Of a DNA stretch of 64,000 bases, positions 6,714-63,913 are shown piece by piece. Numbering within the stretch: position 1 is the stretch's first letter; every line of letters starts with the position of its first letter. The notes under the pieces were generated by a model. That model had not been told where the DNA came from and ran no database searches. It saw only the letters and a program-made list of their open reading frames with translations. This stretch comes from an uncultured Desulfobulbaceae bacterium (GTDB lineage: Bacteria > Desulfobacterota > Desulfobulbia > Desulfobulbales > BM004). The stretch is taken from assembly GCA_945787325.1 (NCBI GenBank), contig CALZHP010000001.1:73-64072 (forward strand), in the 5' to 3' direction. Position numbers and translations under genes: made by a program.

Positions 6714-7661
6714 ATGAATAATAAATACCCTCTACTGGTCATTATCGGACCGACCGCTATAGGAAAGACATCCCTATCTCTCAGGATTGCCGAGCAATTT
6801 TCCTGTGAGATTATCGGAGTTGATTCTATGCAGGTCTATAAATATATGGACATTGGGACCGCCAAACCCACACCTGATGAACGGGCCGTCTGCCCACATC
6901 ATCTGATTGATATCATTTTTCCTGATGAGAACTATACAGCTGGACGTTTTGTGGAAGATTCTGAAGCTATCATAAAAAATATTATTGAAAATAATAATAT
7001 TCCTCTGCTGGTAGGTGGTACAGGGCTATACCTAAAAGCTTTATTTAATGGTCTCTTTGACAGTGCACCAACTGACCATGAAGTACGAAGCAAACTTAAG
7101 AAAAGACTGGAAGGGGAGGGGCGAGAAAAATTGTATTCGGAGCTCAAGAAATCTGATCCTGTTTCAGCTGAAAAAATCCATATCAATGATACTCAAAGAC
7201 TAATACGAGCACTTGAAATTTTTCACGTAACGGGTGTTCCCTGGTCTCAACATGTTGAACAACAAAAATCCCTTGAAAATAATCGTACCAATCTCCTTCA
7301 AAACCAAAAAGTGTTGAAAATAGGTCTTACCTGCGATAGAGATTACTTATACGGAAAAATCAATAATCGAGTTGAACATATGGTAACTGAAGGTCTGCTG
7401 GATGAAGCAAAGACCCTACTTGAAATGGGCTACGGACCTTTTTTGAACTCGATGCAGTCTATAGGATACCGCCACATGATAAACTACCTAGAGGGAATAT
7501 GGACTTGGGAGAAATCATTAGAAATGCTGGCAAGAGACACTAGGCGATATGCTAAAAGACAATTTACCTGGTTCGGGCGTGACCCCGATATCAAATGGTT
7601 TCACGTTGGTGATCAGGATAAAATAGTTACAACAGTAAAAGACTTCATAAAAGAGCGATGA
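6714..7661 (+). CDS. miaA: tRNA dimethylallyltransferase
   Basis: The P-loop is IIGPTAIGKTSLS. DSMQVYKYMDIGTAKP and GGTGLY motifs are also present. Confidence 0.93.
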   Translation: MNNKYPLLVIIGPTAIGKTSLSLRIAEQFSCEIIGVDSMQVYKYMDIGTAKPTPDERAVCPHHLIDIIFPDENYTAGRFVEDSEAIIKNIIENNNIPLLVGGTGLYLKALFNGLFDSAPTDHEVRSKLKKRLEGEGREKLYSELKKSDPVSAEKIHINDTQRLIRALEIFHVTGVPWSQHVEQQKSLENNRTNLLQNQKVLKIGLTCDRDYLYGKINNRVEHMVTEGLLDEAKTLLEMGYGPFLNSMQSIGYRHMINYLEGIWTWEKSLEMLARDTRRYAKRQFTWFGRDPDIKWFHVGDQDKIVTTVKDFIKER

Positions 7662-15351: not shown

Positions 15352-16515
15352 TTAAAATTTTGGAGTATCTGCAGGGGGCTGAGGAGTATCCCCTTTTAGC
15401 AACAACCAGAACCTGATAGCAGTTTGGCCAGTAACTTTTTCCCTGGCCTTTATAGCTACACGGTTGGATCTTCTTTGCAGCTCAGCAGGATTTTCAACAC
15501 GCAGAATATCGCCATCAAGTTTTGTCGGCATCCATCCAAGTTCACTTACATATATGGCAAAGCTTCTCGGGTCGTATCTCTGAGGATATAACACTCTGGC
15601 ACTGTATAATTCGGGAGTCGAGTTATTAAGTAGGCCGGAATCAGGTTGAATTGATTCTACAGGAAGATCTGCCCGGTTTAATACCATTTCAAAATGTTCC
15701 ATAGTTGACCAGCTGTTTCCCAGAATAGGCTCCCTGGGAATAGAATATAGTGCGGTATCGGTACTTACTGCTCCGGGATCCTGTGTAAACACGGCGTTGT
15801 AGCCAATATCCCTGGCTACTTCCACAACTGTTGAATTATATTCCCCGTATGGCAGTGCCAGAAATTCTGGTTTATGGCCCAGGTTTTTCTCTATGAGTTT
15901 ATAGCTTTTAAGCAGGTCATCCCTGATCCATTTGCTGTAATGAGCTTTGTCCATACCATCAGGAATAGTTCCCATGCGGTTGTGGGCGTAACTATGATCC
16001 TGAAAGTCTACACCCTGGCCCTGAAGTTCTTTAATCTGTTCCCATGTCATGTAGTCCCAATGCTTATTATCTGTAGCCTTTGAATATATAAAAACAGTAA
16101 ATGGGTAACCAAAAGACTTCAATAGCGGCCACGCTTTTTCGTAAACACTCTTATATCCATCATCTATAGTGATAACGACAGATTTTCTAGGAAGTTTTTC
16201 GCCCTTCTTAAGTAACTCAAACAACACAGAAAGTGATATTACATTGTAATTATTACTTTTCAGATAATCCAGCTGCTCGGCAAATCTTTCAATGGTAACA
16301 TTTGTCGAAGGGTATTTGTCTTCTCCGAATCTATGATAAATAAAAACAGTGACATTATTTGACAATGCAGACTTTTCAAAATTATTAGTCAAATCAATCG
16401 CACTATGGGAATTGTCTGAAGAATGATCAGCTGCAACAAGCAAAGCAGGAGTATTTAATGAGGTCAGGAATACGTGAAAAATTACCAAAAGAACAGAGTT
16501 GTTAAATAATTTCAT
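15352..16515 (-). CDS. secreted polysaccharide deacetylase (NodB/CE4 domain) with extra C-terminal domain
   Basis: 387 aa with a signal peptide. NodB motifs are VITIDDGYKSVY and DHSYAH. About 110 aa at the C-terminus are unassigned. Confidence 0.75.
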   Translation of the reverse strand: MKLFNNSVLLVIFHVFLTSLNTPALLVAADHSSDNSHSAIDLTNNFEKSALSNNVTVFIYHRFGEDKYPSTNVTIERFAEQLDYLKSNNYNVISLSVLFELLKKGEKLPRKSVVITIDDGYKSVYEKAWPLLKSFGYPFTVFIYSKATDNKHWDYMTWEQIKELQGQGVDFQDHSYAHNRMGTIPDGMDKAHYSKWIRDDLLKSYKLIEKNLGHKPEFLALPYGEYNSTVVEVARDIGYNAVFTQDPGAVSTDTALYSIPREPILGNSWSTMEHFEMVLNRADLPVESIQPDSGLLNNSTPELYSARVLYPQRYDPRSFAIYVSELGWMPTKLDGDILRVENPAELQRRSNRVAIKAREKVTGQTAIRFWLLLKGDTPQPPADTPKF

Positions 16516-38637: not shown

Positions 38638-40392
38638 TTAGATAGTCTGAGCCTCAACAAGTTGTTCAAGATTACTTTTGGCAAACTCTATTGATGGGTC
38701 AAGAGAAAGTGCCAGCTCAAAATACTTAATGGCCTCATCGTTCTTATTAAGTTTTCTATAATTAACACCAAGGTTAGCATAATCTATGGCAGAGGCTGGG
38801 TTAAGTTCAACGGTTTTACTGAAATGTGAAACAGCCGTTTCATATTCACCAAGCTTGAAGTGGCAGAATCCTAGCATATTATGAAGATCTGGGCGAGTGT
38901 TGTCCATAGCCGTTCCTTTTTCCAGAACAGTAATTGCTTCACTATATTGTTCCAGATCCTTAAGGCAATTACCCATGTAGGAGTAAATATAGGGCATGTC
39001 CTCTTCTTCAGGATTGAGCTGAAGTGTTTTTTTGAAATGCGCCATCGCTTCATCATGCATTCCTAAAGCAAGCTTATTGCGTCCCAGGTAGAATTCAATA
39101 TAATATGAATTAGGTTGAATCTTCTGAAGATTTAACAAGTGTTCATTGGATTCGACGGGATCTTTAACAAGTTCTGCCAAAAGTTTAGCCGCGAAAAGCC
39201 CCACGCTTTTACTTCTAGATCGCTCTCTGAAATGAGCCCCAGGTATAATTGTGTATATTGTTGGTATCCGCAGCTTTTCATGCATGGTATTCATGATATA
39301 TACATCCATATCAATTTTCTTAAGTGCTGCAAGACATCTATCAATCTCTGTTTTCATATTGTCATCGGTAAGATCATCCATATCCTGAAGATCTATAGTT
39401 TTGCCGGGATTAGTCAAGTACTCAACCTCATCCATACTCAACGGCTTAGGAAGCCCACTGGCCACATAATTAGCCTTGGTATTGAAGTCGCCGGCTAATT
39501 GCGCTACCTCAGTATAAGCCCTGATAAGTGATTTTTCAGGGTTGGGAGTAGTTCCTGCCGTGTAAACAATCTCACTAGTCATCGGAAAAGTGGATCTGTC
39601 GATCGCAAGAGCACCTATAGTCGGAATACCAGTGTCCAAAGAAAAATCGTTCAGGTAGACTTCAATGTTATGTTTCCTGAATTTGTTAATCAGTTCTTTG
39701 GAGACAGGATCATTAGCGGAATCAAGATTTATCAGCGGTGATTTTATTTCATCATGGCTAATTACAGCGCATACGTGACGCTCAACAATTTCACAAATAC
39801 CCTGACTTATAGCTTCTTCGTATGTATTGCCTGCGGAAGGACCATTAAATTCATTAATCGCATAGAACCATGAGAAAGGAATCAGTAACTCCTCTTCTTT
39901 GTTTAAATGAGTAACCCAGGTCCATTGAATTGGAATGTCGGCCAGCATTTTTTCAAGTGTTTCTTCATCAGTTGTCTCATCATGCACTGACTGCAGCATC
40001 TTTTTAAGAGGAAGAAGCGGATAACCCTGTGCTTTGAGATTGGGATATGTATCAGTGATAAAATTATCAGGATTTTTTATAAAACTGAAGAAACTGTAAC
40101 GTTCGGCAAGCTCCATACATGCACTTGCACGTGACTGTTCCGGTGTGCTTCCTTTTCCCATCTGTTTTTTATTGCCGATTGTCTCACGAGCGTCTTTTCC
40201 GGTAACACTGAAATAAACAGGTATATCAAGTCGTCCGTTATCAATGCGTCGCACCTCTTTGAGAATGTCAAGATCTACTTCCTTAAGCATCTTCATGAAA
40301 CGATCAACAGTTTCTACTGGCGACATTACCTTATCCTGATCGTATGTATAATGCTTAAAACAATCTTTTAATCTGATGGGCCTCTTTTCCAT
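38638..40392 (-). CDS. YcaO-domain protein fused to C-terminal TPR repeats
   Basis: 584 aa. YcaO motifs are RIDNGRLDIPVYFSV and SRASACMELAERYS. From about aa 430 there are 4-5 TPR-like repeats, for example YIEFYLGRNKLALGMHDEAMAHFKKTLQLNP and LGFCHFKLGEYETAVSHFSKTVELNP. Confidence 0.85.
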   Translation of the reverse strand: MEKRPIRLKDCFKHYTYDQDKVMSPVETVDRFMKMLKEVDLDILKEVRRIDNGRLDIPVYFSVTGKDARETIGNKKQMGKGSTPEQSRASACMELAERYSFFSFIKNPDNFITDTYPNLKAQGYPLLPLKKMLQSVHDETTDEETLEKMLADIPIQWTWVTHLNKEEELLIPFSWFYAINEFNGPSAGNTYEEAISQGICEIVERHVCAVISHDEIKSPLINLDSANDPVSKELINKFRKHNIEVYLNDFSLDTGIPTIGALAIDRSTFPMTSEIVYTAGTTPNPEKSLIRAYTEVAQLAGDFNTKANYVASGLPKPLSMDEVEYLTNPGKTIDLQDMDDLTDDNMKTEIDRCLAALKKIDMDVYIMNTMHEKLRIPTIYTIIPGAHFRERSRSKSVGLFAAKLLAELVKDPVESNEHLLNLQKIQPNSYYIEFYLGRNKLALGMHDEAMAHFKKTLQLNPEEEDMPYIYSYMGNCLKDLEQYSEAITVLEKGTAMDNTRPDLHNMLGFCHFKLGEYETAVSHFSKTVELNPASAIDYANLGVNYRKLNKNDEAIKYFELALSLDPSIEFAKSNLEQLVEAQTI

Positions 40393-51928: not shown

Positions 51929-52291
51929 CTAAAATACGACATCTTTAGGATAACTGAACGTAGCCACCACTTTCCACTTGTCTTTTGATTCATCACTGGA
52001 GCTTCCAAACCAGACGAGATATATTTTTTCGTTGTCGGTATAAATCCATTCTTCATATGGATCTGAAGGTTTCAATACTGAAATCAATATCTCTTGTGGA
52101 CCGTAAAAAGGCTGTTCAGGAACTATTTCATGAATCACCTTTTCCGGCTCACCAAGAATATATTCAATATCCTGTCTTGACATATCATTTTCAACTACTC
52201 GAAAATTCTTTTTAATTGTACCGGCAAAAGAATGAGAATTAAATATGACAAAGGTATAAGCTGTTAAGAAATAGATAAATTTTGTTTTCAT
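51929..52291 (-). CDS. small secreted protein (BamE/SmpA-like motif)
   Basis: 120 aa with a signal peptide ending SFAG. The segment MSRQDIEYILGEPEKV resembles the BamE/SmpA_OmlA helix-turn motif. The function is unsupported. Confidence 0.45.
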   Translation of the reverse strand: MKTKFIYFLTAYTFVIFNSHSFAGTIKKNFRVVENDMSRQDIEYILGEPEKVIHEIVPEQPFYGPQEILISVLKPSDPYEEWIYTDNEKIYLVWFGSSSDESKDKWKVVATFSYPKDVVF

Positions 52292-52400: not shown

Positions 52401-52431
52401 AAAGAAAAAACCGGGGTCAAACCCCGGTTTT
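52401..52431 (-). terminator. rho-independent (bidirectional-looking) terminator ending the ParA-like transcription unit
   Basis: On the minus strand the sequence reads AAAACCGGGG-tttga-CCCCGGTTTT followed by TTCTTT. The mirror A/T tracts would let it work on either strand. Confidence 0.8.
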
Positions 52432-52564: not shown

Positions 52565-52861
52565 TTAATCGTTTTCAATGTTATCTTCAGAGGGTTTTAA
52601 GGTTTCAGAAAGAGAGTTTACGACATCTTGGAGTAAAGCATAAGCACCCTGGAACCAGGCGGCATTCATGTTGACCTGTCCGTTCCTAAGTTCGATGCCC
52701 AAGCAGGAATTTTTTAGAACTTCAAGCTTCGACACATTTTCAATTATCAATTTTGAGTCGTATTTGTTTTCTTTTGATTCTTTGTTACTTGATTCTTCGC
52801 TTGAAAGAAAAAAATGAGAAACTTCATTAAAACTTCTAGACGGTTTTTTGTGTGCTTGCAT
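52565..52861 (-). CDS. hypothetical small protein with basic N-terminus, candidate ParA partner
   Basis: 98 aa, lying 33 nt downstream of the ParA-like gene on the same strand. The N-terminus is MQAHKKPSRSF, followed by a Ser/Glu/Lys-rich low-complexity stretch and an acidic C-terminus. I recognise no family. Confidence 0.5.
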   Translation of the reverse strand: MQAHKKPSRSFNEVSHFFLSSEESSNKESKENKYDSKLIIENVSKLEVLKNSCLGIELRNGQVNMNAAWFQGAYALLQDVVNSLSETLKPSEDNIEND

Positions 52862-52894: not shown

Positions 52895-53974
52895 TCAGAT
52901 GTTGATTATGGAATTTCTACCTCCACATAAGTCATCAACAAAGTTTTCGTTTTTCGGATCCGCGATCCACTTATCATTTACCACGTATTTATAGGCATAA
53001 GAACCTGGTTTCAATGGTATTGTTTTACACCACATTACCTTTCCACCGGAATTTATCAGGTTGAGTGGTTCTGGAACCCAGTTATTGAAATCCCCCGCGA
53101 TACACACTTCAGCGTTTTCAGGTGCATCCATTGAAAACAAAACTTTCCCATGCTCCATGTCCTCCTGGCGCATATGATTTTGCAGGAGAAATTCTATAAT
53201 AGAAGTGTCAACCTCTATCTCAGATTCAGGACTCATTGTTTCTCTGGTGAGTTCAGTAAAATCTCGAAAAGCTATACAATCCTTATTGTGCTCGACTAAT
53301 GGAATCCCAAGGCCGGCCGCCTCCCTCAATGCAGTACAAGTATTAATAACGGTTCGAAAACAATTATCGGGATAAGTAGTCTTGAGAAATTCTGCCATTT
53401 CCCTGCAGAACTTAGTCCTGCGGTCAATATTATTTGCAAGGATTTTGGCGGAAAGATGGTGACCTGTTTTTTTCGCCAATACTCGAATAGTTTCAAGTTG
53501 TTTTTCAACACCATCAATAGAAAAATAACTTGGGTCTACGGGAATAATAACCTCTGAAGCTGCCATCAGACCGTTAATGGTAATAAGTCCTACACTTGGT
53601 GGGCAATCCAATATTAGATAATCGTACTTTGATTGAATCCCTTCAGTGCATTTTGCCAGTTTAAGTTCCCTGCCCTGCTCACCTGACATCACTTGTTCAA
53701 AGGCGCTGAGAACAACGTCACTGCAAACTATATCAAGGTTGTCCCTTACACTGATCACTGCTTCCTCAATTGTGGATTCACCGATCAGTACTTCATAAAT
53801 GCTTTTTTCAACTGTAACAGGTGCAACACCAAGACCCATAGCCGAGTGTCCCTGAGGGTCCAGATCAATGAGTAGCACTTTTCTACCCTTAGCCGCAAGA
53901 GAACTTGACAGGTTTATTGCTGTTATGGTTTTACCACACCCACCCTTCTGATTCACGAGAGCTATCCTTCTCAT
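52895..53974 (-). CDS. ParA/MinD-family ATPase fused to C-terminal CBM48 / AMPK-beta-type glycogen-binding domain
   Basis: 359 aa. The deviant Walker A is VNQKGGCGKTIT, with LLIDLDPQGH and ILDCPP also present. About aa 275-359 (nt 52898..53152) read VLFSMDAPENAEVCIAGDFNNWVPEPLNL...KPGSYAYKYVVNDKWIADP, the classic AMPK-beta/CBM48 pattern. The Shine-Dalgarno is AAGGAGAAGGGG. Confidence 0.85.
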   Translation of the reverse strand: MRRIALVNQKGGCGKTITAINLSSSLAAKGRKVLLIDLDPQGHSAMGLGVAPVTVEKSIYEVLIGESTIEEAVISVRDNLDIVCSDVVLSAFEQVMSGEQGRELKLAKCTEGIQSKYDYLILDCPPSVGLITINGLMAASEVIIPVDPSYFSIDGVEKQLETIRVLAKKTGHHLSAKILANNIDRRTKFCREMAEFLKTTYPDNCFRTVINTCTALREAAGLGIPLVEHNKDCIAFRDFTELTRETMSPESEIEVDTSIIEFLLQNHMRQEDMEHGKVLFSMDAPENAEVCIAGDFNNWVPEPLNLINSGGKVMWCKTIPLKPGSYAYKYVVNDKWIADPKNENFVDDLCGGRNSIINI

Positions 53975-54185
53975 ACCCCTTCTCCTTACTGCTTTGTTGA
54001 AAATTTCAGATAGTTATGGAGCACACTGTAACAATCGAAATGCAGCTGGTCTGAAGACATAAAATGTCACATATCAACCAACGTCGTTATTAGGATGCTA
54101 TCATATATTTCTTATGAATTGCAAAGGAAAATTAAGCCAGAAATTCAATTAGTAAATTAATTAGTTTTTAGAACTATTTTTATAT

Positions 54186-54281: not shown

Positions 54282-57200
54282 CTACTTTTCAGCTTCTACC
54301 AATACTATGCTACCAGTCTCATCATGTTTAGTCCAAATCTTGTCATTATCAAATCCGGCACTTAGCATAATTTCCTGCATCTCATTTTCTGTACGGTACA
54401 CCAGCCACCAGTCAAGTAACCATTCCATTTTTGGTATGGATTGATGATCTGAGCGGTAATTGCTTGTCATCATGTGCATCCCAGGCCGACCACCTTGATG
54501 TACTGCCTCTATAATCGCTGTTGCAGCATCTTTCTCAAGGTATTCGATCAGTCCCATACATATGCAGACATCTACTTCTTCTGCTACTTCTTTAATGCGT
54601 GCAACACCTTGAGGAGAAATCAAATTATGTTTTTCGGTAACCAATGTTGCCCTTGGATCTACAAGGTTTTCCTTAACAAATCGAATGGCACGTTCATCCA
54701 AATCAAATCCAGTAATTGAAAAAGTAATGTCCGGCGCAGAATTTTCAATGACTGTTCTCTCAATTGCCATTGGACCGAAGCCGAGGTCCAACAACCTGAT
54801 ATGCTTCATACCCTTTTCTTCCATTATCGACCTGACTCTTTCAGCGACCCAGTAAGATCGCTGACGAACAGCTTCACTACCTATATTCTCGATAAAATTG
54901 CGGTCAAAATGGTATCCGATTCCTGTCGAAAAAAGTTGTTTATAAAACATCATATTCATCAAAAGATGATCACCTGGATACCCATACGGCTTTTCTAGCG
55001 TTCGTCGGAACACTTTTGAATCATGAAGATAATGTTTTATTTTCTCGTACATATAATTTCGTTTGTTCTTTAATTCTTCATCTGAAAAATGTTTTTCTAA
55101 TTCACTTAAAGATTCTACTGTTGTATCAAGTACAGAATTAAATATTTTGAAATGTTCTTCTGTATCAGGATGCTCAGGATCATTTTTGAAAAGTTCAATA
55201 CCAGCATCAAGTTTTCCAAAAAAGTTTTCCGCTATTTCATTAAATCTCTTTTCTGGCGATTTTGATAAAGATATATTTAAATTGTGAGAGTTATCTACTA
55301 GAGGATGTTGATCTATTCCCGGTTCATCAACTGCTACTGCCATTGCCTGAACGGTTTTTCCATTCTTTTCATTATAAAAAACTGTACTCAATAGATTAAC
55401 GTCGTTGCCGTCAAAATCACCTTTAAAAAGGTACCAGGGTCCACCAAGATGTGTTTTAAATTTAGGAACATGCCTTTTTAATGAATTTGACTTCTTACCT
55501 GCCTCTAAAAGAGACCAGACCCTGGTAGCAGTCTTGTCAAAAGGTTCCGAGGTTTTCGCTACAAGCTCACGTGCAAGGTGATAACCGTCTTCACCCAATA
55601 ATCCACGCCATGTTTCAGCATCGTGATTCTGTACAGTTTCGAAATCAAGTCCTATTGATGACGGACCAACCATGGCAATCGATTTTTCCGCATCATCAGC
55701 CAGACTCATACCTGTACTGTTCAGCACTTGTGCGCTAGGCTCGCTGTTTATGTGTAGATCAGGTTTTCCATCCGGTTGATGACGAATTGCGATATCGGTC
55801 GGATTTAGGTCCAGGTTATGTTGATCCCTGGCATATTGCACAGTGGCACGGCGCGTAGCAAGAAGGTTGGAAATTGCCGTAGTACGCCTTGATGCAGCAA
55901 TTTCCTTTTGAAAATACTCGAGTTCGTCACTTCTAATTTCATCATTATCAGTCAAGGATTCAACTTCTGTATGTTCGATAGCAGCCAGGCCAAATGATTC
56001 ACTTTCAAGAAAAGACTGTAGATCAGTTACAACACGTGACATTGGAATCTGAGGGTAAGGTTTCGCAACACTTATTCCCGCATTAGGAGCCTGCAGAATC
56101 AGTCCTTTTATTGTTTCCAGGATCTGTCCGTCTTCGTCGTATAGATTGATATTAGCACTGTAACGTTCAGCAGTTCGTTTTTGACCAATAACGTGACAAA
56201 TAATTCTGGAACCTGGTTTCATATTGCGGTATATACGAAGTTCATCCATTTCCACAGGGAGATACCCTGTAGGCATAAGAAGAGCACCGCTTTGCAGAGC
56301 AGAATCTCTTGCTGCAGGAGAGACCGTAAGAAGAGATTTGTTGGTTACGTTGCCGAAATACTTTTCATCTTCAGGCACCTTAATCTCTGTAATACTCTCA
56401 CTCGATGTTTCGAGTTTATAGATCGCACTTATCCTCCGCATAAACTTACCCTGAAAAAGAGGGGTCGGACTGAAATCCTCCGGGCTGACAGGTAGTTTTT
56501 CAGGCAAATTCGGACAGGAAGGAATTTGGGATACATGAGTGCTATCCGCACCGAAAATACAATCAGCTCGAAAATGATTTTCTCTAAAACCATCACCTTC
56601 AGAACGAATTGCCATTTTCACCCTTATCATTCCACTCGTTTGCGGATCAGCAACAGCCATCACACGCATTATAATTTTACTGTCAGCCGGGACTATCAAA
56701 GGACGCTTGAAACGGATACTTTGCAACACAGGATAATCATTTCTCCCGGTACATGCCTGAGCCGCTTCTACCATGGCTTCAATTGCCATTACTCCTGGAA
56801 ACAAAGGAGTGCCGTCAAAAACATGTTCTGAAATATATTTGTCTCTATCATGAGAAATTAATGTGTCTGCAACCAATTCGCCGGACGGGACCCAACGCTG
56901 TATCTTTTCAAGAAATCTACCTGCTGGTTTCTGAATTGGTGCAAAAAGAGTGGCCTCAAGCTCTGGGGTCATGCGTCCTATGATCAGGAAAGTGGATCCC
57001 AAGCAAGGCTGCCGGGTAAGCTTTATGTAGGAATCTATGCCTTCTTTGTTGCTGATAGGAGTGATTCCCTGCATTGCAAGAGATTCTACAGCACCCAGCC
57101 TTTTGCCAAGACCGGTTTCAGACCAGACGGAATATCCCAATGATAAACAATGTATATGGGGATAATAATGTAATACGCTTTGAACAGCGCCATTCAACCA

Positions 57201-60200
57201 GGCATTTGCATAGGTATAATCACTCTGGCCGATCATTCCGGTTGAACCAAGAATGGAGGAAATTACATGCAGTGCTTTTAATTTATCTAAGGAAACAGCA
57301 GATAAAATATTATAGAGGCCACGGGTTTTGACGTGAATATTAGCTAAACAGGATTCCAGGTCCATTTCTCGGAAGAGTTTTAATTGACTCAAACCGGCAC
57401 CATGCAGGATCCCTGTAATTTTACCCATACTCTGACTCACTTCAAGTACTGTTTTTTGTACCGCTTGCTGATCTGTTACATCACACTGAAAATACCTGTA
57501 GTGAATGCCTTCATTGTCATATCGCTGCAAATTTTGAAAGATTTCATTTTTCCGTTTTGATGATGTTTCAGCATCTACAAGGGGGGATGAGCCGAGTATT
57601 GCGAGTTTAACACCTGTACTACGGGATAATTCACGGGCAAGTTCAAAAGTAATTCCTTTTGCTCCTCCTGTTACAAGAAATGTGTCTGTATCGTTTAAAT
57701 GCAAAACTTCCTTCTCGTTGAACTCAGAAGGCTGCGCTACCATGGCCATGCGCTGGCCATCTTCAATAAAGTTGTATACCAGGCGTCCTGTTGCGACCTC
57801 CATTTCCTGCATGGCTGTTTCAGCCCACTGTTCAGCGGACCAGGAGTCTGGCAAAGAGACCCATTTAAAGTTTGCAGAAGGATATTCAAGGCACATTGAT
57901 TTCATAAAACCTGTTCCAGCCTCAAGGTCTATATCTGAGTTGTAATCATCAGATACAGGTCGCAATACAAGGCTGCGAAAACCGGACCAGCCAGATTCTA
58001 AAGTTTTATCCAATAGTTTATAACAATTGAAAAGATTCGAAATGAGTCCGTCTATACGAACGTCAAATTCCTCTGATGTGCAAGAGAAGAAAGCATTTTG
58101 ATTTTCCGGTAAGATAATAATCATGCCAATGAGATTATCTGGAAGTTGGTTTACTTCAAAAATAGATGAAAAATCGTAAAATACAGTTGATAGCCCTTTC
58201 CTGTTTAGTATATTTGAAAGGCTCTGATGCCTGTGAGATTCTGATTCACCGACCAGTAATACGGTACCTGCTGAAGGTAGAGGCAGGCTTTTCTCATGTG
58301 CAATTGGATAGAAATATGAGTTCATCTGGAAGTTACGAATATTATCGGGAATTATATTCTCCAGACTTATATAGTCAGTTCCGACTTCTTCTTTTTCAAT
58401 GCTCTTTTTTCTATCAATTTTTTTATTCTGAGCTTCGAGCTGCATTGCTTCAACCATCTCTGACAAAGGTGAATTAGCATATATCGAAGGATCATCTGCA
58501 AAATTTCCATTAAATTCTCGGGCAAGTACAATAGCAAGCTCACCAACTTTGATAGAGTCAAGATTAAGGTCATCACGAAGTTTCATTTCAGGCTGTATCG
58601 AATCAGGTGGAAATCCTGTGCGATCAGCTATACTTTTGATAGCAAATGTAAGTATATCACCCCTCAATGCAGGTTCGACTGGTTGCAATAATTCCTGTTC
58701 AGAAGCTACTTCATCAGATTCTGCAGCAGTATCGTCATGCTGTATATCTGGTTTAATAAATTCGGTAGGCAAGCTGCTGGGAAAGTTCTGATAATCCAGA
58801 GCAATATAATCTTTGAGAAATTGTTGGCGTCTGTTGAAATACGATTCAAAGAGTTCAGGGTTAATCCCTTCAGGTATTAATTTTTCTTCCAGCATGTTGA
58901 CAGGTTGAATTTTTTCAAGATGGCTGATATCAACTTGATTCTCACAAGGATTAGTAATAAATTGCGGATCATATGCTTCGACTGAGAACGGACGATGAAA
59001 TCTATGTTCAAAAAAATTATTTAAGTTGAGAGGAAACCCAAGAACATATGCCCTACCCAGTAATTCGTTCAATGGTTTTGAAGTGTCTGAATCGTTAGCA
59101 TCGGTGGGCATACAGGGACTGTTGATATTACCAAGGATATCTTTGACCAAATTGCTGAGGACCTGCCCCGGCCCTATTTCAATCCATAGGTCTGGTGAGT
59201 GAGCGGTTACTTCTTCAATAGCGTCTGTAAATCGTACAGGGTTTTGAATTTGTTGCCCAAGTAGTTTTTTTATGTCTTCCGAATTGGAAACTTCCATTCC
59301 GGTTGAAGTGGAAATTACCGTCCCATTTAAAGTTTGAAAATCTATGTCCCTCAAGCTTTCTAAAAAACTTTCAGAGGCAGGTGCTACAATATTTGAGTGG
59401 AAAGCATGTGAAACAGGAAGAATTGCACATTGAATATTTTGCTTTTTACACTCACCAGCCAAGGCCTCTATTGCTGCTGATGTTCCAGAAACAACCGTTT
59501 GTTTTAAGGAATTATAGTTAGAAATAATCGCCTTACCCATAAAAGGTTCAATAAGTATTTCAATATTTTTTGGGGTATCCGCAATTGCCAGCATGCCGCC
59601 GGGATCTTGTATATTCAGTGACGACATTGCATTACCACGTAGTGATGCAATTCTCACAGCAGTTTGTTCGTCATACACACCCATGGTATGAAATGCCGCA
59701 ATTTCACCAAGACTGTGTCCTACAGCGATATCGGGTTTAAGTCCCAAAAACTCCAGTACCTGAAGTATAGCAATGGATGTAAGGATAATTGCCGGTTGTG
59801 ATACTCGAGTATCTCGCAGGTTTGCACCGGCCTGATGGATGGTCTGTTCATTATGCGCAAATTGATCAATGAAAATAGAATCCATTAACCCTTCAGGCAT
59901 AACTGTAAAAACTGCATCTTCGCTGCTTTCATATAGTTCTTGAACAAAAGGAAATCTTCGTACTAAATCTTCACCCATATTGAATTTCTGACTTCCCTGT
60001 CCCGGAAAGAGTGCAACAGACTTAGGATTTTTTCTTGCTATCCCAGCAAAAATGCCTGCCGACTGGTTTTCAAGCTGGTTTATTTTCACACCTGAAACTA
60101 ATTTCAAGTGAATCAATTGGAGAGATTCTTCCAAGTCCCAAGGAGATTCGCAGACTATTGCCAGCCGGAGCTTACCTCCCATTGGTTCTTTGGTTAATGC

Positions 60201-61778
60201 AGCGGAAAGGTCAATTAATTCTGCACGGCAAATACGGCCAGCAAATTTTAATAGTTTTTCCACAGTATTCTGAAGTTCGGAATAATTTTCTGCAGCAATT
60301 AAAATTAACTCACTTTTTTGATAACTTTCCAGGATGGCAACATCCACTTGTGACGGTTTAGTGTCAGGATCAACTTCTTCAAGAGTTACATGGGAGTTTG
60401 CTCCTCCAAATCCCATAGAACTAATTGAGGACCGTCGAGGTCCATTATTTGCCTGCCATTCTCTTCCTGAAGCAACTGGCCGAAGAGTCCCAAGAGGTCT
60501 GCCGAACTGAGGATTGGGGCTTATACAGTTCATGGTAGGAGGTAATATTTTTCTTTTTAAAGCCATAATTGTTTTGGCCATTCCTGCAGCACCAGCAGCG
60601 GCTTTGCAGTGACCTATATTGCTTTTGATACTTCCAATCCAGCAAGGTCCATGGTCTGGTGAATTGTCTATAAGATCTTTTAAAGCAATAATTTCAACAT
60701 TGTCTCCCACAGGTGTACCGGTCCCGTGTCCTTCAAAAAGATCAACGGATGAGATTGGATACCCTGCCAAGTCATATGCTTTTTTTAATGCCCTCTTCTG
60801 CCCTTCTGGCTCAGGAGATGTTATTCCTCCATTGCCGTCAGATGAATATCCCCAACCTTTTATGAGGGCATGGATTCTAAGACCGGATTTACGAGCAAAT
60901 TCTTCTTTTACAAGGACAAAAATACCGCAACCTTCTCCTGCAAGCATACCTTCCGCCTGCTCATCATATGGCTTAATGTCTTCTTTTGCTAAGGCTCTAG
61001 TTTTGGCAAATCCAATAATTTCGAATGGATCAAGACTTACATCAACACCACCCGCCAAGGCAATTTCCATATCATCGTTGCGCAAGGCATTACATGCATG
61101 AGCTACAGACAAAAGGGATGAAGAACAAGCACCGTCAACCGTATAGCCGCCAGCTCCAAAATTAAAATAATTGCAGATCCGACCTGCGATAGTATTTGAC
61201 ATGTTACCCGCAAGACTGTCTTCATTCAATTCAGGTAACGCAGACTCATAGGAATACTGAAAAGCCATATCCAACTGATCAATTTGTTGCTTGTCGAAAT
61301 TGTTGTGCTCAAGAACTCTTCGAATAGATCGTGAAACATATGGCCAACGGAATTTTAGTGTATGACTTCGGGAAAACTCTCCTGCCAGAGTGTTACCAAG
61401 TATCAGCCCAATTTTGGCTCGATCAAGTTTGTCGAGATCAATCCCTGCATCAGAAATTGCCTTATCTGCAGTCCATAACGCAAGCCAATGAGCCATATCG
61501 GAAGCTTTAACAACAGTCGGGGGAATACGAAACTGGAGTGGATCAAATGCCCAATCGGTAATGACTGCCATCTGATCGCAATAGGTTTTTCCAGGAGTTG
61601 AGGGGTCAGAATCGAAATAGTCATTTCTTGGCAGTCTTTCGTCAGGCATCTTGCGAAAATAACGTCTTCCTGCCAATACGTTCTGCCAGAGTTCTTCTGG
61701 TGAATGTGCACCGGGATATACACACCCCATGCCAATTACAGCAATAGCAGAACTACTATCCGATCTGGCTTTACTCAT
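54282..61778 (-). CDS. single-module (iterative-type) type I polyketide synthase: KS-AT-ACP-KR-DH-PPTase-like-methyltransferase
   Basis: 2498 aa with a strong Shine-Dalgarno (AAAAAGGGGGGAGAAT before the ATG).
- KS: DGAC218SSS, EGH351GTGT and SNIGH390.
- AT: FPGQGSQ, GHS689LGE and HAFHS (malonyl-type).
- ACP: LNLDS1075IKVGE.
- KR: VTGGAKGIT and SDYTYANAW.
- DH: H1652VFDGTPLFPG and D1825SALQ.
- Sfp-like PPTase motifs: DGKPDL, IGLDFE and VWSLLEAGKK.
- C-terminal class I SAM methyltransferase: IRLLDLGFGPMAIE, ITGFDLDERAI and VCICMGLIEYL. Confidence 0.92.
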   Translation of the reverse strand: MSKARSDSSSAIAVIGMGCVYPGAHSPEELWQNVLAGRRYFRKMPDERLPRNDYFDSDPSTPGKTYCDQMAVITDWAFDPLQFRIPPTVVKASDMAHWLALWTADKAISDAGIDLDKLDRAKIGLILGNTLAGEFSRSHTLKFRWPYVSRSIRRVLEHNNFDKQQIDQLDMAFQYSYESALPELNEDSLAGNMSNTIAGRICNYFNFGAGGYTVDGACSSSLLSVAHACNALRNDDMEIALAGGVDVSLDPFEIIGFAKTRALAKEDIKPYDEQAEGMLAGEGCGIFVLVKEEFARKSGLRIHALIKGWGYSSDGNGGITSPEPEGQKRALKKAYDLAGYPISSVDLFEGHGTGTPVGDNVEIIALKDLIDNSPDHGPCWIGSIKSNIGHCKAAAGAAGMAKTIMALKRKILPPTMNCISPNPQFGRPLGTLRPVASGREWQANNGPRRSSISSMGFGGANSHVTLEEVDPDTKPSQVDVAILESYQKSELILIAAENYSELQNTVEKLLKFAGRICRAELIDLSAALTKEPMGGKLRLAIVCESPWDLEESLQLIHLKLVSGVKINQLENQSAGIFAGIARKNPKSVALFPGQGSQKFNMGEDLVRRFPFVQELYESSEDAVFTVMPEGLMDSIFIDQFAHNEQTIHQAGANLRDTRVSQPAIILTSIAILQVLEFLGLKPDIAVGHSLGEIAAFHTMGVYDEQTAVRIASLRGNAMSSLNIQDPGGMLAIADTPKNIEILIEPFMGKAIISNYNSLKQTVVSGTSAAIEALAGECKKQNIQCAILPVSHAFHSNIVAPASESFLESLRDIDFQTLNGTVISTSTGMEVSNSEDIKKLLGQQIQNPVRFTDAIEEVTAHSPDLWIEIGPGQVLSNLVKDILGNINSPCMPTDANDSDTSKPLNELLGRAYVLGFPLNLNNFFEHRFHRPFSVEAYDPQFITNPCENQVDISHLEKIQPVNMLEEKLIPEGINPELFESYFNRRQQFLKDYIALDYQNFPSSLPTEFIKPDIQHDDTAAESDEVASEQELLQPVEPALRGDILTFAIKSIADRTGFPPDSIQPEMKLRDDLNLDSIKVGELAIVLAREFNGNFADDPSIYANSPLSEMVEAMQLEAQNKKIDRKKSIEKEEVGTDYISLENIIPDNIRNFQMNSYFYPIAHEKSLPLPSAGTVLLVGESESHRHQSLSNILNRKGLSTVFYDFSSIFEVNQLPDNLIGMIIILPENQNAFFSCTSEEFDVRIDGLISNLFNCYKLLDKTLESGWSGFRSLVLRPVSDDYNSDIDLEAGTGFMKSMCLEYPSANFKWVSLPDSWSAEQWAETAMQEMEVATGRLVYNFIEDGQRMAMVAQPSEFNEKEVLHLNDTDTFLVTGGAKGITFELARELSRSTGVKLAILGSSPLVDAETSSKRKNEIFQNLQRYDNEGIHYRYFQCDVTDQQAVQKTVLEVSQSMGKITGILHGAGLSQLKLFREMDLESCLANIHVKTRGLYNILSAVSLDKLKALHVISSILGSTGMIGQSDYTYANAWLNGAVQSVLHYYPHIHCLSLGYSVWSETGLGKRLGAVESLAMQGITPISNKEGIDSYIKLTRQPCLGSTFLIIGRMTPELEATLFAPIQKPAGRFLEKIQRWVPSGELVADTLISHDRDKYISEHVFDGTPLFPGVMAIEAMVEAAQACTGRNDYPVLQSIRFKRPLIVPADSKIIMRVMAVADPQTSGMIRVKMAIRSEGDGFRENHFRADCIFGADSTHVSQIPSCPNLPEKLPVSPEDFSPTPLFQGKFMRRISAIYKLETSSESITEIKVPEDEKYFGNVTNKSLLTVSPAARDSALQSGALLMPTGYLPVEMDELRIYRNMKPGSRIICHVIGQKRTAERYSANINLYDEDGQILETIKGLILQAPNAGISVAKPYPQIPMSRVVTDLQSFLESESFGLAAIEHTEVESLTDNDEIRSDELEYFQKEIAASRRTTAISNLLATRRATVQYARDQHNLDLNPTDIAIRHQPDGKPDLHINSEPSAQVLNSTGMSLADDAEKSIAMVGPSSIGLDFETVQNHDAETWRGLLGEDGYHLARELVAKTSEPFDKTATRVWSLLEAGKKSNSLKRHVPKFKTHLGGPWYLFKGDFDGNDVNLLSTVFYNEKNGKTVQAMAVAVDEPGIDQHPLVDNSHNLNISLSKSPEKRFNEIAENFFGKLDAGIELFKNDPEHPDTEEHFKIFNSVLDTTVESLSELEKHFSDEELKNKRNYMYEKIKHYLHDSKVFRRTLEKPYGYPGDHLLMNMMFYKQLFSTGIGYHFDRNFIENIGSEAVRQRSYWVAERVRSIMEEKGMKHIRLLDLGFGPMAIERTVIENSAPDITFSITGFDLDERAIRFVKENLVDPRATLVTEKHNLISPQGVARIKEVAEEVDVCICMGLIEYLEKDAATAIIEAVHQGGRPGMHMMTSNYRSDHQSIPKMEWLLDWWLVYRTENEMQEIMLSAGFDNDKIWTKHDETGSIVLVEAEK
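54285..55256 (-). other. C-terminal class I SAM-dependent methyltransferase-like domain (aa ~2175-2498)
   Basis: Motif I is LLDLGFGP, with an acidic post-I residue in GFDLDE and a motif II/III-like segment VCICMGLIEYLEKD. A helical region containing EKPYGYPGDHLLMNMMFY precedes it. Confidence 0.65.
55329..56006 (-). other. Sfp-type 4'-phosphopantetheinyl transferase-like domain (aa ~1925-2150)
   Basis: The motif order is RR...LLATRRA, then DGKPDL, then SIGLDFE (Asp2045 codon at 55644..55646), then TRVWSLLEAGKK. This parallels the Sfp/ACPS motifs GKP, (V/I)G(V/I)D.E and W..KEA..K. The match is degenerate, so an HMM check is needed. Confidence 0.6.
56079..56906 (-). other. PKS dehydratase (PS-DH double hotdog) domain (aa ~1625-1900)
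   Basis: The HxxxGxxxxP motif is HVFDGTPLFPG, with the His1652 codon at 56823..56825. A downstream DSALQ (DxxxQ) motif is present. Confidence 0.8.
56979..57686 (-). other. PKS ketoreductase catalytic subdomain (aa ~1365-1600)
   Basis: The Rossmann motif is TGGAKGIT, with the Thr1370 codon at 57669..57671. The S...Y..AN catalytic motif is SSILGSTGMIGQSDYTYANAW. Confidence 0.85.
58443..58673 (-). other. PKS acyl carrier protein domain (aa ~1036-1112)
   Basis: In LNLDSIKV, the Ser1075 codon is at 58554..58556 (checked in frame). Confidence 0.8.
59139..60020 (-). other. PKS acyltransferase domain (aa ~587-880), malonyl-type
   Basis: The Ser of GHSLGE is encoded at 59712..59714 (checked in frame). 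FPGQGSQ and HAFHS motifs are present. Confidence 0.88.
60381..61751 (-). other. PKS ketosynthase domain (aa ~10-466)
   Basis: The active-site Cys218 codon is at 61125..61127 (checked in frame). The His motifs are EGHGTGT and KSNIGH. Confidence 0.9.
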
Positions 61779-62470: not shown

Positions 62471-63913
62471 CTAGGGTTTGAAATTATCAGAAGACCAACC
62501 AAGTCTTGAGACACCGTGTTTTTTCAGGAGAGTGTATAATCTTGTACGGCTTAAACCAGATACCTCGCAGGCCTGCTTCAGATCTCCTTTAGTAAATGCT
62601 ACTAAGTCCTGAAAATATTTTTTTTCAGCATCTGCCAACACGGTTTCTTTGAATGGTCGATATTTCAATGGATCATTAGGTGGTAAATTTTCTTTCATTA
62701 TAATGCCAAAATCATGTGTATCGTCCTGTATATCAGCAAGGGGCCATAAAGAATGGATTCGAACCTGGTCAGGTAAATGTTTAGGTACCAGAATCGGTTC
62801 ATGTAACGCTTTGCTGATTGCACCCTCGAGGGCCTTAATCAGCTCCCGTACATTCCCAGGCCAGTTATAAGCCTGCAGGGCATCAAAAAAATCAACTGAA
62901 AATCCTTTTGTTTCAATACCGTATTTTTCACAAATTCTGGTAGTGTAGTAAACAGCCAGTTCTTTTATATCTCGAGCATGTTCTCTAAGCGGTGGCAAAT
63001 CAAGAGTAATGGATCGTAAACGATAAAGAAGGTCATGCCTGAAAAGCCCTTTTGTGACAAGTTTTTCAGGATCTTTGTTTGTTGCAGCAATAAGCCTAAA
63101 GTTACTTTCGATCTCCCGGTTTCCTCCTACAGGACGAAAGCGGCCTTCCTGAAGGACCCGTAAAAATATTTTCTGAAGATTTAAGCTCAGATCGCCGACC
63201 TCATCCAGAAACAAGGTACCACCATTCGCCTGTTTAATCAGCCCATCTGTTGACTTTTCTGCACCGGTGAATGAGCCCTTTTCATATCCAAACAGGGAAC
63301 TTTGCACCAATGTTTCCGGAAGAGCGGCACAATCTACAACCACAAAATTATGATGCGACCGTAAGCTGTTAAAATGGATTGACCGTGCAAATAATTCCTT
63401 TCCAGTACCTGTCTCACCGGTAATCATAACACTTGCATCTCCACCGGCAGCCTGTGCTACGGTATCCAGGCAAGTTCTAACCTGTCGGCTTCTTCCGACA
63501 ATTCCACTAGTATCCAATGCGACAGTTGGTTGTTGAATATTCTTCTTACTCTCTCGATAAGCAAGAACACGATTGAGAGAGAGCCTCACTCTTTTAGAAT
63601 GCAAAGGTTTTTGTAGATAGTCCCATGCTCCATTCTTCACTGCAAGTTCGGCGCCATCAGGTGTACCAACCCCAGTAATAATTATAACCTCTGGGGATGA
63701 TTTAGTATCACGGATAACCGGCAATGCCTGTAGGCCATCTCCATCCGGCAGCATTACATCCAGTAAGACAACATCAAATTCTTCATTTTTCGCAATGTCC
63801 AGACCATTGTCGAGTGTCAATGCTGTAGAAACAAGATAGCCCAACTTTTCCAGCAACCTTGTCAGAAATCCGCATACTCCTGGATCATCATCTATGATAA
63901 GAACTTTTGACAC
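62471..63913 (-). CDS. sigma54-dependent response regulator (NtrC family: REC - AAA+ - Fis-type HTH)
   Basis: 480 aa with a GTG start. The receiver has VLIIDDDPGV and VVLLDVMLPDGDG. The AAA+ domain has GETGTGKE, the sigma54-contact loop GSFTGA (GAFTGA variant) and LDEVGDL. The C-terminal HTH is ACEVSGLSRTRLYTLLKKHGV. Confidence 0.92.
   Translation of the reverse strand: MSKVLIIDDDPGVCGFLTRLLEKLGYLVSTALTLDNGLDIAKNEEFDVVLLDVMLPDGDGLQALPVIRDTKSSPEVIIITGVGTPDGAELAVKNGAWDYLQKPLHSKRVRLSLNRVLAYRESKKNIQQPTVALDTSGIVGRSRQVRTCLDTVAQAAGGDASVMITGETGTGKELFARSIHFNSLRSHHNFVVVDCAALPETLVQSSLFGYEKGSFTGAEKSTDGLIKQANGGTLFLDEVGDLSLNLQKIFLRVLQEGRFRPVGGNREIESNFRLIAATNKDPEKLVTKGLFRHDLLYRLRSITLDLPPLREHARDIKELAVYYTTRICEKYGIETKGFSVDFFDALQAYNWPGNVRELIKALEGAISKALHEPILVPKHLPDQVRIHSLWPLADIQDDTHDFGIIMKENLPPNDPLKYRPFKETVLADAEKKYFQDLVAFTKGDLKQACEVSGLSRTRLYTLLKKHGVSRLGWSSDNFKP

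Follow-up and report, generated by a model that had tools for sequence, protein, structure and literature searches.

ParA/MinD-type ATPases are the main known means by which bacteria place large objects without a cytoskeleton, and the cargos assigned to them are DNA, carboxysomes, chemoreceptor arrays, flagella and the divisome. Among storage granules, those of polyhydroxybutyrate (PHB) are tethered to the nucleoid in Ralstonia eutropha by PhaM. How bacteria partition glycogen is an open question. Glycogen goes unmentioned in a survey of ParA/MinD cargos (PMC10241942), and the mechanism that positions polyphosphate granules is still described as undiscovered (PMC13556221). Here we describe a locus in 64,000 nucleotides of DNA from an uncultured Desulfobulbaceae bacterium (contig CALZHP010000001.1; this whole stretch is called the window), in which the gene at 52895..53974 on the (-) strand encodes a Soj/ParA-type ATPase joined to a carbohydrate-binding module (CBM) of the CBM48/AMPK-beta type. 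We refer to the product as ParA-CBM48, and to the small gene directly after it as its partner. The reading that we favour, at a rough probability of 0.45, is that the two genes form a module that would position alpha-glucan (glycogen/polyglucose) granules, acting as an ATP-gated tether on the nucleoid that is recycled by the peptide of the partner. In a search of the full-text literature, neither a ParA-CBM48 fusion nor a ParA-type glycogen system was found to be described, in agreement with the original prediction for this DNA, whose author knew of no characterised system of the kind. ParA-CBM48 and its partner would be a new form of the known ParA/MinD positioning systems, in which the ATPase is fused to a polysaccharide-binding domain and has an activator tag of its own.

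The ParA-CBM48 gene, as given in the table of open reading frames (ORFs), begins with ATG and encodes 359 amino acids and a stop codon. The original prediction of a Soj-like ParA ATPase fused to a CBM48 proves correct down to its exact coordinates, and the families on which it turns all score above their Pfam cut-offs: AAA_31 at residues 1-174 (179 bits, cut-off 27), AMPK1_CBM at residues 288-358 (37.2 bits, cut-off 26.8) and CBM_48 at residues 272-339 (24.6 bits, cut-off 22.4), with CbiA, MipZ and ParA also matching the N-terminal region. No NCBIfam equivalog scores above its cut-off for the protein, ParA_partition staying at 111 bits where 180 are required. In an AlphaFold2 model, for which 57 homologues were aligned (mean predicted local distance difference test score, pLDDT, 85), two folded domains are separated by a disordered segment. 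The first is the ATPase domain, residues 1-250 (53225..53974, (-) strand), on which AAA_31, phmmer, Foldseek and a pLDDT of mostly 82-97 agree. The second is the CBM48/AMPK-beta-type module, residues 276-359 (52898..53149, (-) strand), supported by Pfam, PDB alignments, conservation and the model, in which eight beta-strands span residues 277-358 within a block of pLDDT 77-93. The Foldseek search was made with the whole model and ParA matches dominate its list, so the C-terminal fold, a putative beta-sandwich of the E-set type, is read from the strands of the model. Between the two lies a tether, residues 251-275 (53150..53224, (-) strand; pLDDT <50), of variable length and unconserved sequence; across the family, the segment corresponding to residues 250-286 ranges from 16 to 93 residues.

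The ATPase is closest to chromosomal ParA/Soj in both sequence and fold. Its best sequence match is chain 8ray_B (138 bits, phmmer), which is Myxococcus xanthus ParA, identified via its D60A substitution (numbering offset 19). The top fold matches are likewise chromosomal Soj/ParA structures (9a6n, 8ray, Helicobacter pylori Soj and Thermus thermophilus Soj), with template modelling (TM) scores of 0.88-0.93 and root-mean-square deviations of 1.6-2.4 A, the best reaching TM 0.92-0.93 at 1.6-1.9 A; McdA, MinD, BcsQ and FlhG rank behind them (Foldseek E of 1e-26 to 1e-20 for Soj/ParA vs ~1e-17 for McdA), and by sequence, too, McdA comes after Soj. We tabulated residue frequencies over an alignment of 66 full-length relatives from ~12 phyla. 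The deviant Walker A motif N8-Q-K-G-G-C-G-K-T16 (53927..53953, (-) strand), with the signature lysine at Lys10, is found in all 66, so that the KGGCGKT noted in the original prediction turns out to be invariant. Residues K10, G11, G12, C13, G14, K15, D37, D39, Q41 and D123 do not vary, and all the Soj/ParA catalytic motifs are kept, D37, D39 and D123 being the Walker A'/catalytic aspartates and the Walker B aspartate; D39 aligns with the D60A position of 8ray. Cys13 (53936-53938), which stands in place of the Val of Soj, is a signature of the family (66/66). Three positions are candidates for contact with DNA. R186 is Arg in 65/66 sequences and aligns with the Arg of a D-x-R-x-N segment in chromosomal ParA (8ray), a position that we take to be that of the DNA-binding Arg (R189) of Bacillus subtilis Soj. 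Lys or Arg is found at position 217 in 59/66 and at position 215 (53330-53332) in 58/66, the latter being the equivalent of M. xanthus R238; the R238E variant has been used as a DNA-binding-deficient ParA (PMC12462528).

The C-terminal module resembles known glycogen-binding modules. The last 108 residues of the protein align end to end with the solved CBMs of AMPK beta1 and beta2 (E ~1e-5) and match pullulanase CBM48 at E 4e-7, with LSF1 and GlgB among the other PDB matches; it belongs to the same Pfam families as the CBM48 modules of AMPK-beta, GlgB, isoamylase, pullulanase and LSF1, and shares with them the pattern F-N-x-W ... Y-K ... W-x-x-D-P. Unlike these proteins, in which the module sits on a kinase scaffold or a glycoside hydrolase, here it is carried by a P-loop positioning ATPase, and its binding is predicted. 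Eight residues of the module are invariant (F296, W299, G324, Y328, W336, D339, G351 and S355, each in 66/66), position 354 is N/D in 66/66, and position 329 is K/R in 65/66. The counterparts of W299, K329 and W336 in AMPK beta1 are W100, K126 and W133 (in the numbering of the full-length beta1 chain in the PDB alignment), and it is these residues that glycogen binding by the beta1 CBM needs, W100G and K126Q abolishing it and W133L weakening it (PMC6274970). The sugar-contact aromatics, whose conservation the original prediction made decisive, are thus intact throughout the family, and the module is predicted to bind glycogen.

The partner gene (52565..52861, (-) strand; 98 amino acids and a stop codon) begins 33 nt after the ParA-CBM48 stop codon. 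Its product has no Pfam or NCBIfam match. We nevertheless regard this ORF as a real gene, judged by comparison, because homologues at the same position in two related loci, L081 (116 amino acids) and L085 (172 amino acids), have in common with it an N-terminal peptide and a C-terminal domain of ~50 residues. The latter, at about residues 38-87 (52601..52750, (-) strand), aligns over S-C-x-G ... W-F-x-G-A-x-A-x-x-Q-D with the two homologues, and in the window it is a small helical domain. The peptide, at residues 5-21 (K-K-P-S-R-S-F-N-E-V-S-H-F-F-L-S-S; 52799..52849, (-) strand), scores 27 bits against a hidden Markov model (HMM) of the motif, and resembles the N-terminal peptide through which ParB acts on ParA. 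Partners of ParA/MinD ATPases generally act through such a peptide (PMC10241942). In ParB, the motif that binds ParA consists of aliphatic residues around a central Arg or Lys, and the peptide alone suffices to stimulate ParA (PMC12462528). In the window, R9-S-F-N-E-V-S-H-F-F-L-S fits this pattern of hydrophobic residues around a central Arg/Lys, as does the family consensus K-x-L-G-R-G-L-E-D-V-S-H-L-F-L-S, and a role as activator is predicted. On the side of the ATPase, Y60 (61/66) and E/D61 (56/66) are the counterparts of M. xanthus Y81 and E82, which form part of the pocket that receives the central Arg of the peptide of ParB (PMC12462528).

Clustering of the genes around 69 loci assigns the same-strand gene just downstream of ParA-CBM48 to many unrelated clusters, yet its product very often has the same starting peptide. 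We ran the peptide HMM (an 18-mer) on all six-frame segments of 81 sequences (1.04 Mb; 17,716 segments). It gave 36 matches of >=12 bits, all on the strand of the ParA-CBM48 gene, and 35 of these lie between 16 nt before and ~190 nt after the ParA-CBM48 stop codon, one per locus (35/81 loci); ~16 of the 35 were outside the HMM seed. With the window left out of the HMM, its peptide still scores 20.9 bits vs 6.8 for the next-best window segment. The one match elsewhere is a second copy of the peptide (18.5 bits) at L016:11860 (+), in another gene ~2.7 kb downstream of ParA-CBM48, suggesting that one ATPase may there serve more than one tagged partner. Matches in PDB sequences were confined to the zinc-finger linkers of PRDM9 (G-R-G-F..S-H-L), and we discarded them as false positives.

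Across clades, the peptide tag is borne by at least six unrelated protein bodies. One (c2; CbiA 32.9 bits) is a P-loop protein resembling MinD/ParA, whose Walker A is often degenerate. A second (c1), of ~230 amino acids, has no Pfam match, and the best PDB match of its profile, the core motif of the NucS endonuclease, is non-significant (E 0.4) and a hint only. In the nearest named relatives (c63), a weak helix-turn-helix (HTH) match is followed by RodZ_C, the HTH_17 scores of 24.8 and 22.9 bits being below the cut-off of 27. The 98-amino-acid protein of the window was considered as a c1-type partner and rejected, given that nothing aligns with the c1 profile beyond the N-terminal peptide, the two bodies being unrelated.

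Our conclusion from these comparisons is that ParA-CBM48 and its peptide-bearing partner make up a two-component system, as far as can be judged from their genes, because the next gene carries the ParB-like N-terminal peptide and is the most conserved feature of the neighbourhood. This departs from the original prediction, in which the cargo module on the ATPase would take the place of a small adaptor protein. The arrangement invites comparison with McdA-McdB, PomXYZ and ParC/PpfA, with which it shares a ParA-type ATPase, a predicted non-DNA cargo and the nucleoid as the likely matrix. As with McdA-McdB and other orphan ParA systems, the adjacent partner is small, fast-evolving, without a database family and recognisable by its N-terminal peptide only. 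In those systems, however, cargo binding is left to the partner, while in ParA-CBM48 the ATPase itself has the putative cargo-binding domain. MinD offers a different parallel, being of the same ATPase family and having a C-terminal surface-binding element whose avidity dimerisation could raise, and release driven by the activator peptide would correspond to the action of MinE; ParA-CBM48 differs from it in having a folded carbohydrate module of 85 amino acids on a long linker in place of an amphipathic helix, and a Soj-like core. No MinC, MinE or other Min genes lie near the locus, there are no chemotaxis or division genes nearby, and no carboxysome or other bacterial microcompartment genes are among the annotated genes of the window. 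From chromosomal ParABS, finally, the system differs in lacking a ParB CTPase and, in the window, a convincing parS, in having partner bodies unrelated to ParB and no parAB context, and, in the ATPase itself, in the tethered C-terminal CBM48 and in Cys13.

ParA-CBM48 is a widespread, unnamed family, and not a one-off. Full-length relatives are present in at least 118 species-level genomes under ~13 phylum-level labels; all 118 carriers are metagenome-assembled genomes (MAGs), and no cultured carrier was seen. In a homology search, the 120 top clusters lie at 52-60% identity and have PF16561 in all but two truncated members, and source names of family members say only 'AAA family ATPase' or 'chromosome partitioning protein'. 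The best 80 loci in species-representative genomes all match out to residue 342-359, and are labelled Desulfobacterota/Thermodesulfobacteriota, Nitrospirota, Myxococcota, Planctomycetota, Omnitrophota, Rokubacteria, Gemmatimonadota, Acidobacteriota, Spirochaetota, Krumholzibacteriota, Eisenbacteria and Bdellovibrionota. Scanning with the back-translated signature N-Q-K-G-G-C-G-K-T added 38 full-length loci, Gammaproteobacteria MAGs among them; the scan scored the best alignment piece only, and carriers with a very long linker were possibly counted as ParA-only. Its matches in isolates (Acinetobacter, Psychrobacter, Cupriavidus, Clostridium) were dismissed as carriers, being ParA-only at 25-31% identity. 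The fusion is no chance juxtaposition, because the two-domain architecture is kept at 35-60% identity in >118 clusters and genomes.

In a search of 72,556 plasmids, the fusion was not found among the matches listed. ParA matches there number >5,000, and the 15 listed all end before the CBM; only 2 plasmid records cover >=80% of the ParA-CBM48 query. With the CBM alone as query, the plasmid matches were no more than 6 genes, all of them on chromids of Vibrio/Pseudoalteromonas, and the annotation of 3 is isoamylase early set protein. The module itself is common, with 6,592 matches at E <= 0.001 for residues 240-359 among 1.84 billion representatives. We rejected that search as a census of the fusion, given that tandem CBM48-type repeat proteins fill the top of its list. 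These repeat proteins, which are prokaryotic and numerous, have 2-17 copies in tandem of a CBM48-type module near this one, and many are of ~480 amino acids with 4 copies. The exact ParA-CBM48 protein of the window has no record in public assemblies, and in sequencing runs the locus gives faint DNA matches only, in marine and other sediment metagenomes.

Neighbouring genes were surveyed with Pfam over 4 genes on each side of 68 loci. ParB/ParBc is not among the recurrent neighbour families, and no ParB was found among the annotated genes of the window or at the loci of its closest relatives. Nor does the window contain anything better than a 3-mismatch match to parS: there are two of these, at 7160 and 34095, both >18 kb from the locus, and two or more matches arise in 4 of 100 shuffles. 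No repeat array was found at the ParA-CBM48 locus. A conventional ParA with parB/parS nearby, which the original prediction had named as the finding that would count against it, is thus not what the window holds, neither ParB nor a convincing parS being present.

The most frequent upstream neighbour family is GH57, with 8 members at -1/-2 and 2 at -3/-4, and the representative that was tested proves to be a 1,4-alpha-glucan branching enzyme (Glyco_hydro_57 + BE_C). Its conservation as a same-strand neighbour is confined to 10-12 loci of one Omnitrophota/Planctomycetota clade (L044, L051, L053, L060, L062, L065, L067, L075-L078, L080), where the order of genes is a porin-like gene (Alginate_exp), the GH57 branching enzyme, a 189-amino-acid membrane protein, ParA-CBM48, a DUF4870-like membrane protein and a Lys-rich protein of 130 amino acids. 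The SHFFLS peptide is absent from all loci of this block. Its 189-amino-acid membrane protein has a conserved N-terminal peptide of its own (M-D-K-K-D-[LI]-Y-E-H-L-A-K-[IV]-Y-L-D), and the 130-amino-acid protein has, besides its poly-Lys tail, a barrel similar to domain 2 of EF-Tu; either could be the activator in that clade. Around the locus of the window and those of its closest relatives lie unrelated housekeeping genes, and nothing but the pair of ATPase and partner is kept. Mapping the distribution of the fusion and its neighbours, as the original prediction had proposed, shows a broad family and ties it to glycogen genes in one clade only. In two loci a further AMPK1_CBM-containing protein is encoded 3-4 genes upstream of ParA-CBM48; one of these (L064:2582-5044 (+)), of 821 amino acids, clusters with the ParA-CBM48 family.

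In the model that we favour, ATP-bound ParA-CBM48 would form a sandwich dimer that binds the nucleoid non-specifically, while the two tethered CBM48 modules of the dimer would hold the surface of a glycogen granule. Many such weak contacts would sum, so that granules stay on the nucleoid and are not squeezed to the pole. Docking of the N-terminal peptide of the partner at the dimer interface would then trigger ATP hydrolysis, upon which the dimer would leave the DNA and be recycled, making the tether dynamic, and the variable partner body would set the place or time of release. The net outcome would be that granules are spread along the nucleoid and divided between daughter cells. This proposed outcome, a storage granule coupled to the nucleoid for inheritance by daughters, is that of PhaM, which unlike ParA-CBM48 is no ATPase and has no activator; ParA-CBM48 would be nucleotide-gated and dynamic. 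In E. coli, glycogen forms nucleoid-excluded condensates at the old pole, which are inherited unevenly and shift the nucleoid and the division site (PMC12706056), and such unpositioned glycogen, displacing the nucleoid, presents a problem for a system of this kind to solve. The model has in its favour the complete set of catalytic motifs in a Soj-like fold, the disordered tether of roughly 25 to 90 residues between the two domains, the match of the CBM residues to those needed by AMPK beta1, the basic residues at 186, 215 and 217 of most relatives, the Y60/E61 counterparts of the M. xanthus pocket, the partner peptide at its specific position in 35/81 loci, the precedent of other ParA/MinD partners that act through N-terminal peptides, the self-contained two-gene unit, the GH57 branching enzyme of one clade, and the negative results for ParB, a convincing parS and plasmids.

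Several observations weigh against it. The main weakness of the model is one of ratchet logic: in a classical diffusion ratchet it is the cargo that bears the activator, but in this system the ATPase bears the hook, and the partner bodies have no tie to glycogen. E-set/CBM48 folds also serve as protein-interaction or regulatory modules, the CBM of AMPK-beta being an example. Neither the window nor its closest relatives show the link to glycogen genes. At position 215 the window protein has Ala, and may for this reason bind DNA more weakly than its relatives. Of the four pocket residues of M. xanthus ParA, two (D110 and E117) are without an acidic counterpart in the family, a motif of its own, L89-S-A-x-E93-Q94, occupying their place. 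Finally, no RNA run was found to hold the locus in a search of sequencing runs. The CBM could be either a cargo hook or a surface anchor.

Two alternatives have room because the hook is on the ATPase and the partner bodies are unconnected to glycogen. The first, which we consider unlikely, is that the glycogen granule is the surface and something else the cargo, CBM48 acting as the C-terminal membrane-targeting helix of MinD does. ATP-driven dimerisation would double the avidity for the granule, and the tagged partners (MinD-like, possibly NucS-like, RodZ-like and small helical) would be clients that are recruited, patterned or released. A CBM at the C-terminus on a flexible tether, in two copies per dimer, would suit such a role, as would the Ala215 of the window protein, which is without one conserved basic residue; the occurrence of the same tag on at least six unrelated bodies also resembles a portable address label (PMC10241942). 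Against this, the Arg at 186 in 65/66 and the basic residues at 215 and 217 in most relatives would be needless without DNA binding. Moreover, a CBM binds its ligand as a monomer too, so that the nucleotide switch would act by avidity only, and none of the partner bodies can be recognised as linked to glycogen. A bolder extension, which we hold to be rather improbable, is that bacteria have in their glycogen granules a positioning surface of a third kind, besides nucleoid and membrane, with ParA-CBM48 as an ATP-switched granule coat or a bridge between granule and nucleoid, and the SHFFLS peptide as a portable tag organising unrelated proteins, from MinD-like pseudo-ATPases and nuclease-like domains to RodZ-like membrane proteins and small helical proteins, around the carbon store; if true, this would be a phylum-spanning system that uses a storage polymer as an organelle-like scaffold.

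The second alternative, to which we give quite a small chance, is that CBM48 is a sensor or protein-interaction module coupling a ParA-driven process to the state of the carbon reserve, the candidate processes being the positioning of a partner-marked object and the placement of the nucleoid or the division site. The CBM of AMPK-beta provides a precedent as a glycogen sensor that inhibits its kinase (PMC6274970; in part PMC2642990), and the HTH + RodZ_C and MinD-like partner bodies point to the machinery of cell shape and division. The disordered tether and its variation from 16 to 93 residues argue against a fixed allosteric contact between CBM and ATPase, and the positions conserved in the CBM are those of sugar contact. 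It is very improbable that ParA-CBM48 is a conventional DNA-partition ParA of a chromosome, plasmid or integrated element with an accessory domain and a non-canonical centromere-binding protein as partner, given that the kinship of its ATPase with chromosomal Soj/ParA, the likeness of the partner peptide to the ParB N-terminus, the sub-threshold HTH_17 match and the non-significant NucS-like hint in c1 are set against a neighbourhood in which ParB does not recur, parS matches that have at least 3 mismatches and are distant, the lack of a repeat array, plasmid ParA matches that, as listed, stop before the CBM, flanks of housekeeping genes that differ between relatives, and a 98-amino-acid partner without a DNA-binding domain.

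A ribosome-binding site and a terminator of its own set off the two-gene unit. A Shine-Dalgarno sequence, AAGGAG (53982..53987, (-) strand), lies 7 nt before the ParA-CBM48 ATG and is as strong as originally described, and the unit ends in a strong intrinsic terminator (52407..52431, (-) strand) with an 11-bp stem of 6 G-C pairs followed by a T-run, also seen as an inverted repeat. Directly upstream, as the original prediction had noted, is a polyketide synthase (PKS) gene, at a distance of 307 nt. This adjacency carries no meaning, since it is not conserved in relatives. Membership of ParA-CBM48 in a PKS operon was ruled out by this gap, by the ribosome-binding site within the 307-nt AT-rich spacer that follows the PKS stop codon, and by the absence of the adjacency in relatives. 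The PKS (54282-61778, (-) strand) is a single-module protein of 2,498 amino acids with KS-AT-KR-DH domains (Pfam) and a long C-terminal extension without Pfam coverage, and upstream of it a sigma-54 activator is encoded at 62471-63913. On the other side of the unit, after the terminator, a 120-amino-acid ORF (51929-52291, (-) strand) with a signal-peptide-like N-terminus and a sub-threshold BamE-like match probably encodes a small lipoprotein in a separate transcription unit.

The window is otherwise ordinary chromosomal DNA, with genes for aspartokinase, MiaA, RecJ, PurB, MiaB, type II topoisomerase subunits and two-component systems, and further for CoaX, HldE and GltB; the topoisomerase A subunit is 64-67% identical to those of Desulfopila, Desulfofustis and Thermodesulfobacteriota MAGs. 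The only gene related to carbohydrate polymers that we saw in it lies at a distance of 36 kb from the locus and encodes a protein with a polysaccharide deacetylase domain (15352-16515, (-) strand), which also matches Glyco_hydro_57 weakly and secondarily (28 bits). At 38638-40392 ((-) strand), adjoining TsaE, a YcaO cyclodehydratase domain is fused with a C-terminal TPR array.

The design of the system is unusual, in that a module for cargo or surface would sit on the ATPase and activation would come from a separate ParB-like peptide, splitting two functions that ParB combines. A short conserved peptide in a self-contained two-gene unit could also serve synthetic biology as a minimal positioning module. 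For the many uncultured phyla in which it occurs, from relatives of sediment sulfate reducers to Planctomycetota, Omnitrophota and Myxococcota, the family is a concrete and testable candidate, and our favoured model, if true, would add storage polysaccharide to the cargos of ParA/MinD ATPases as a new class.

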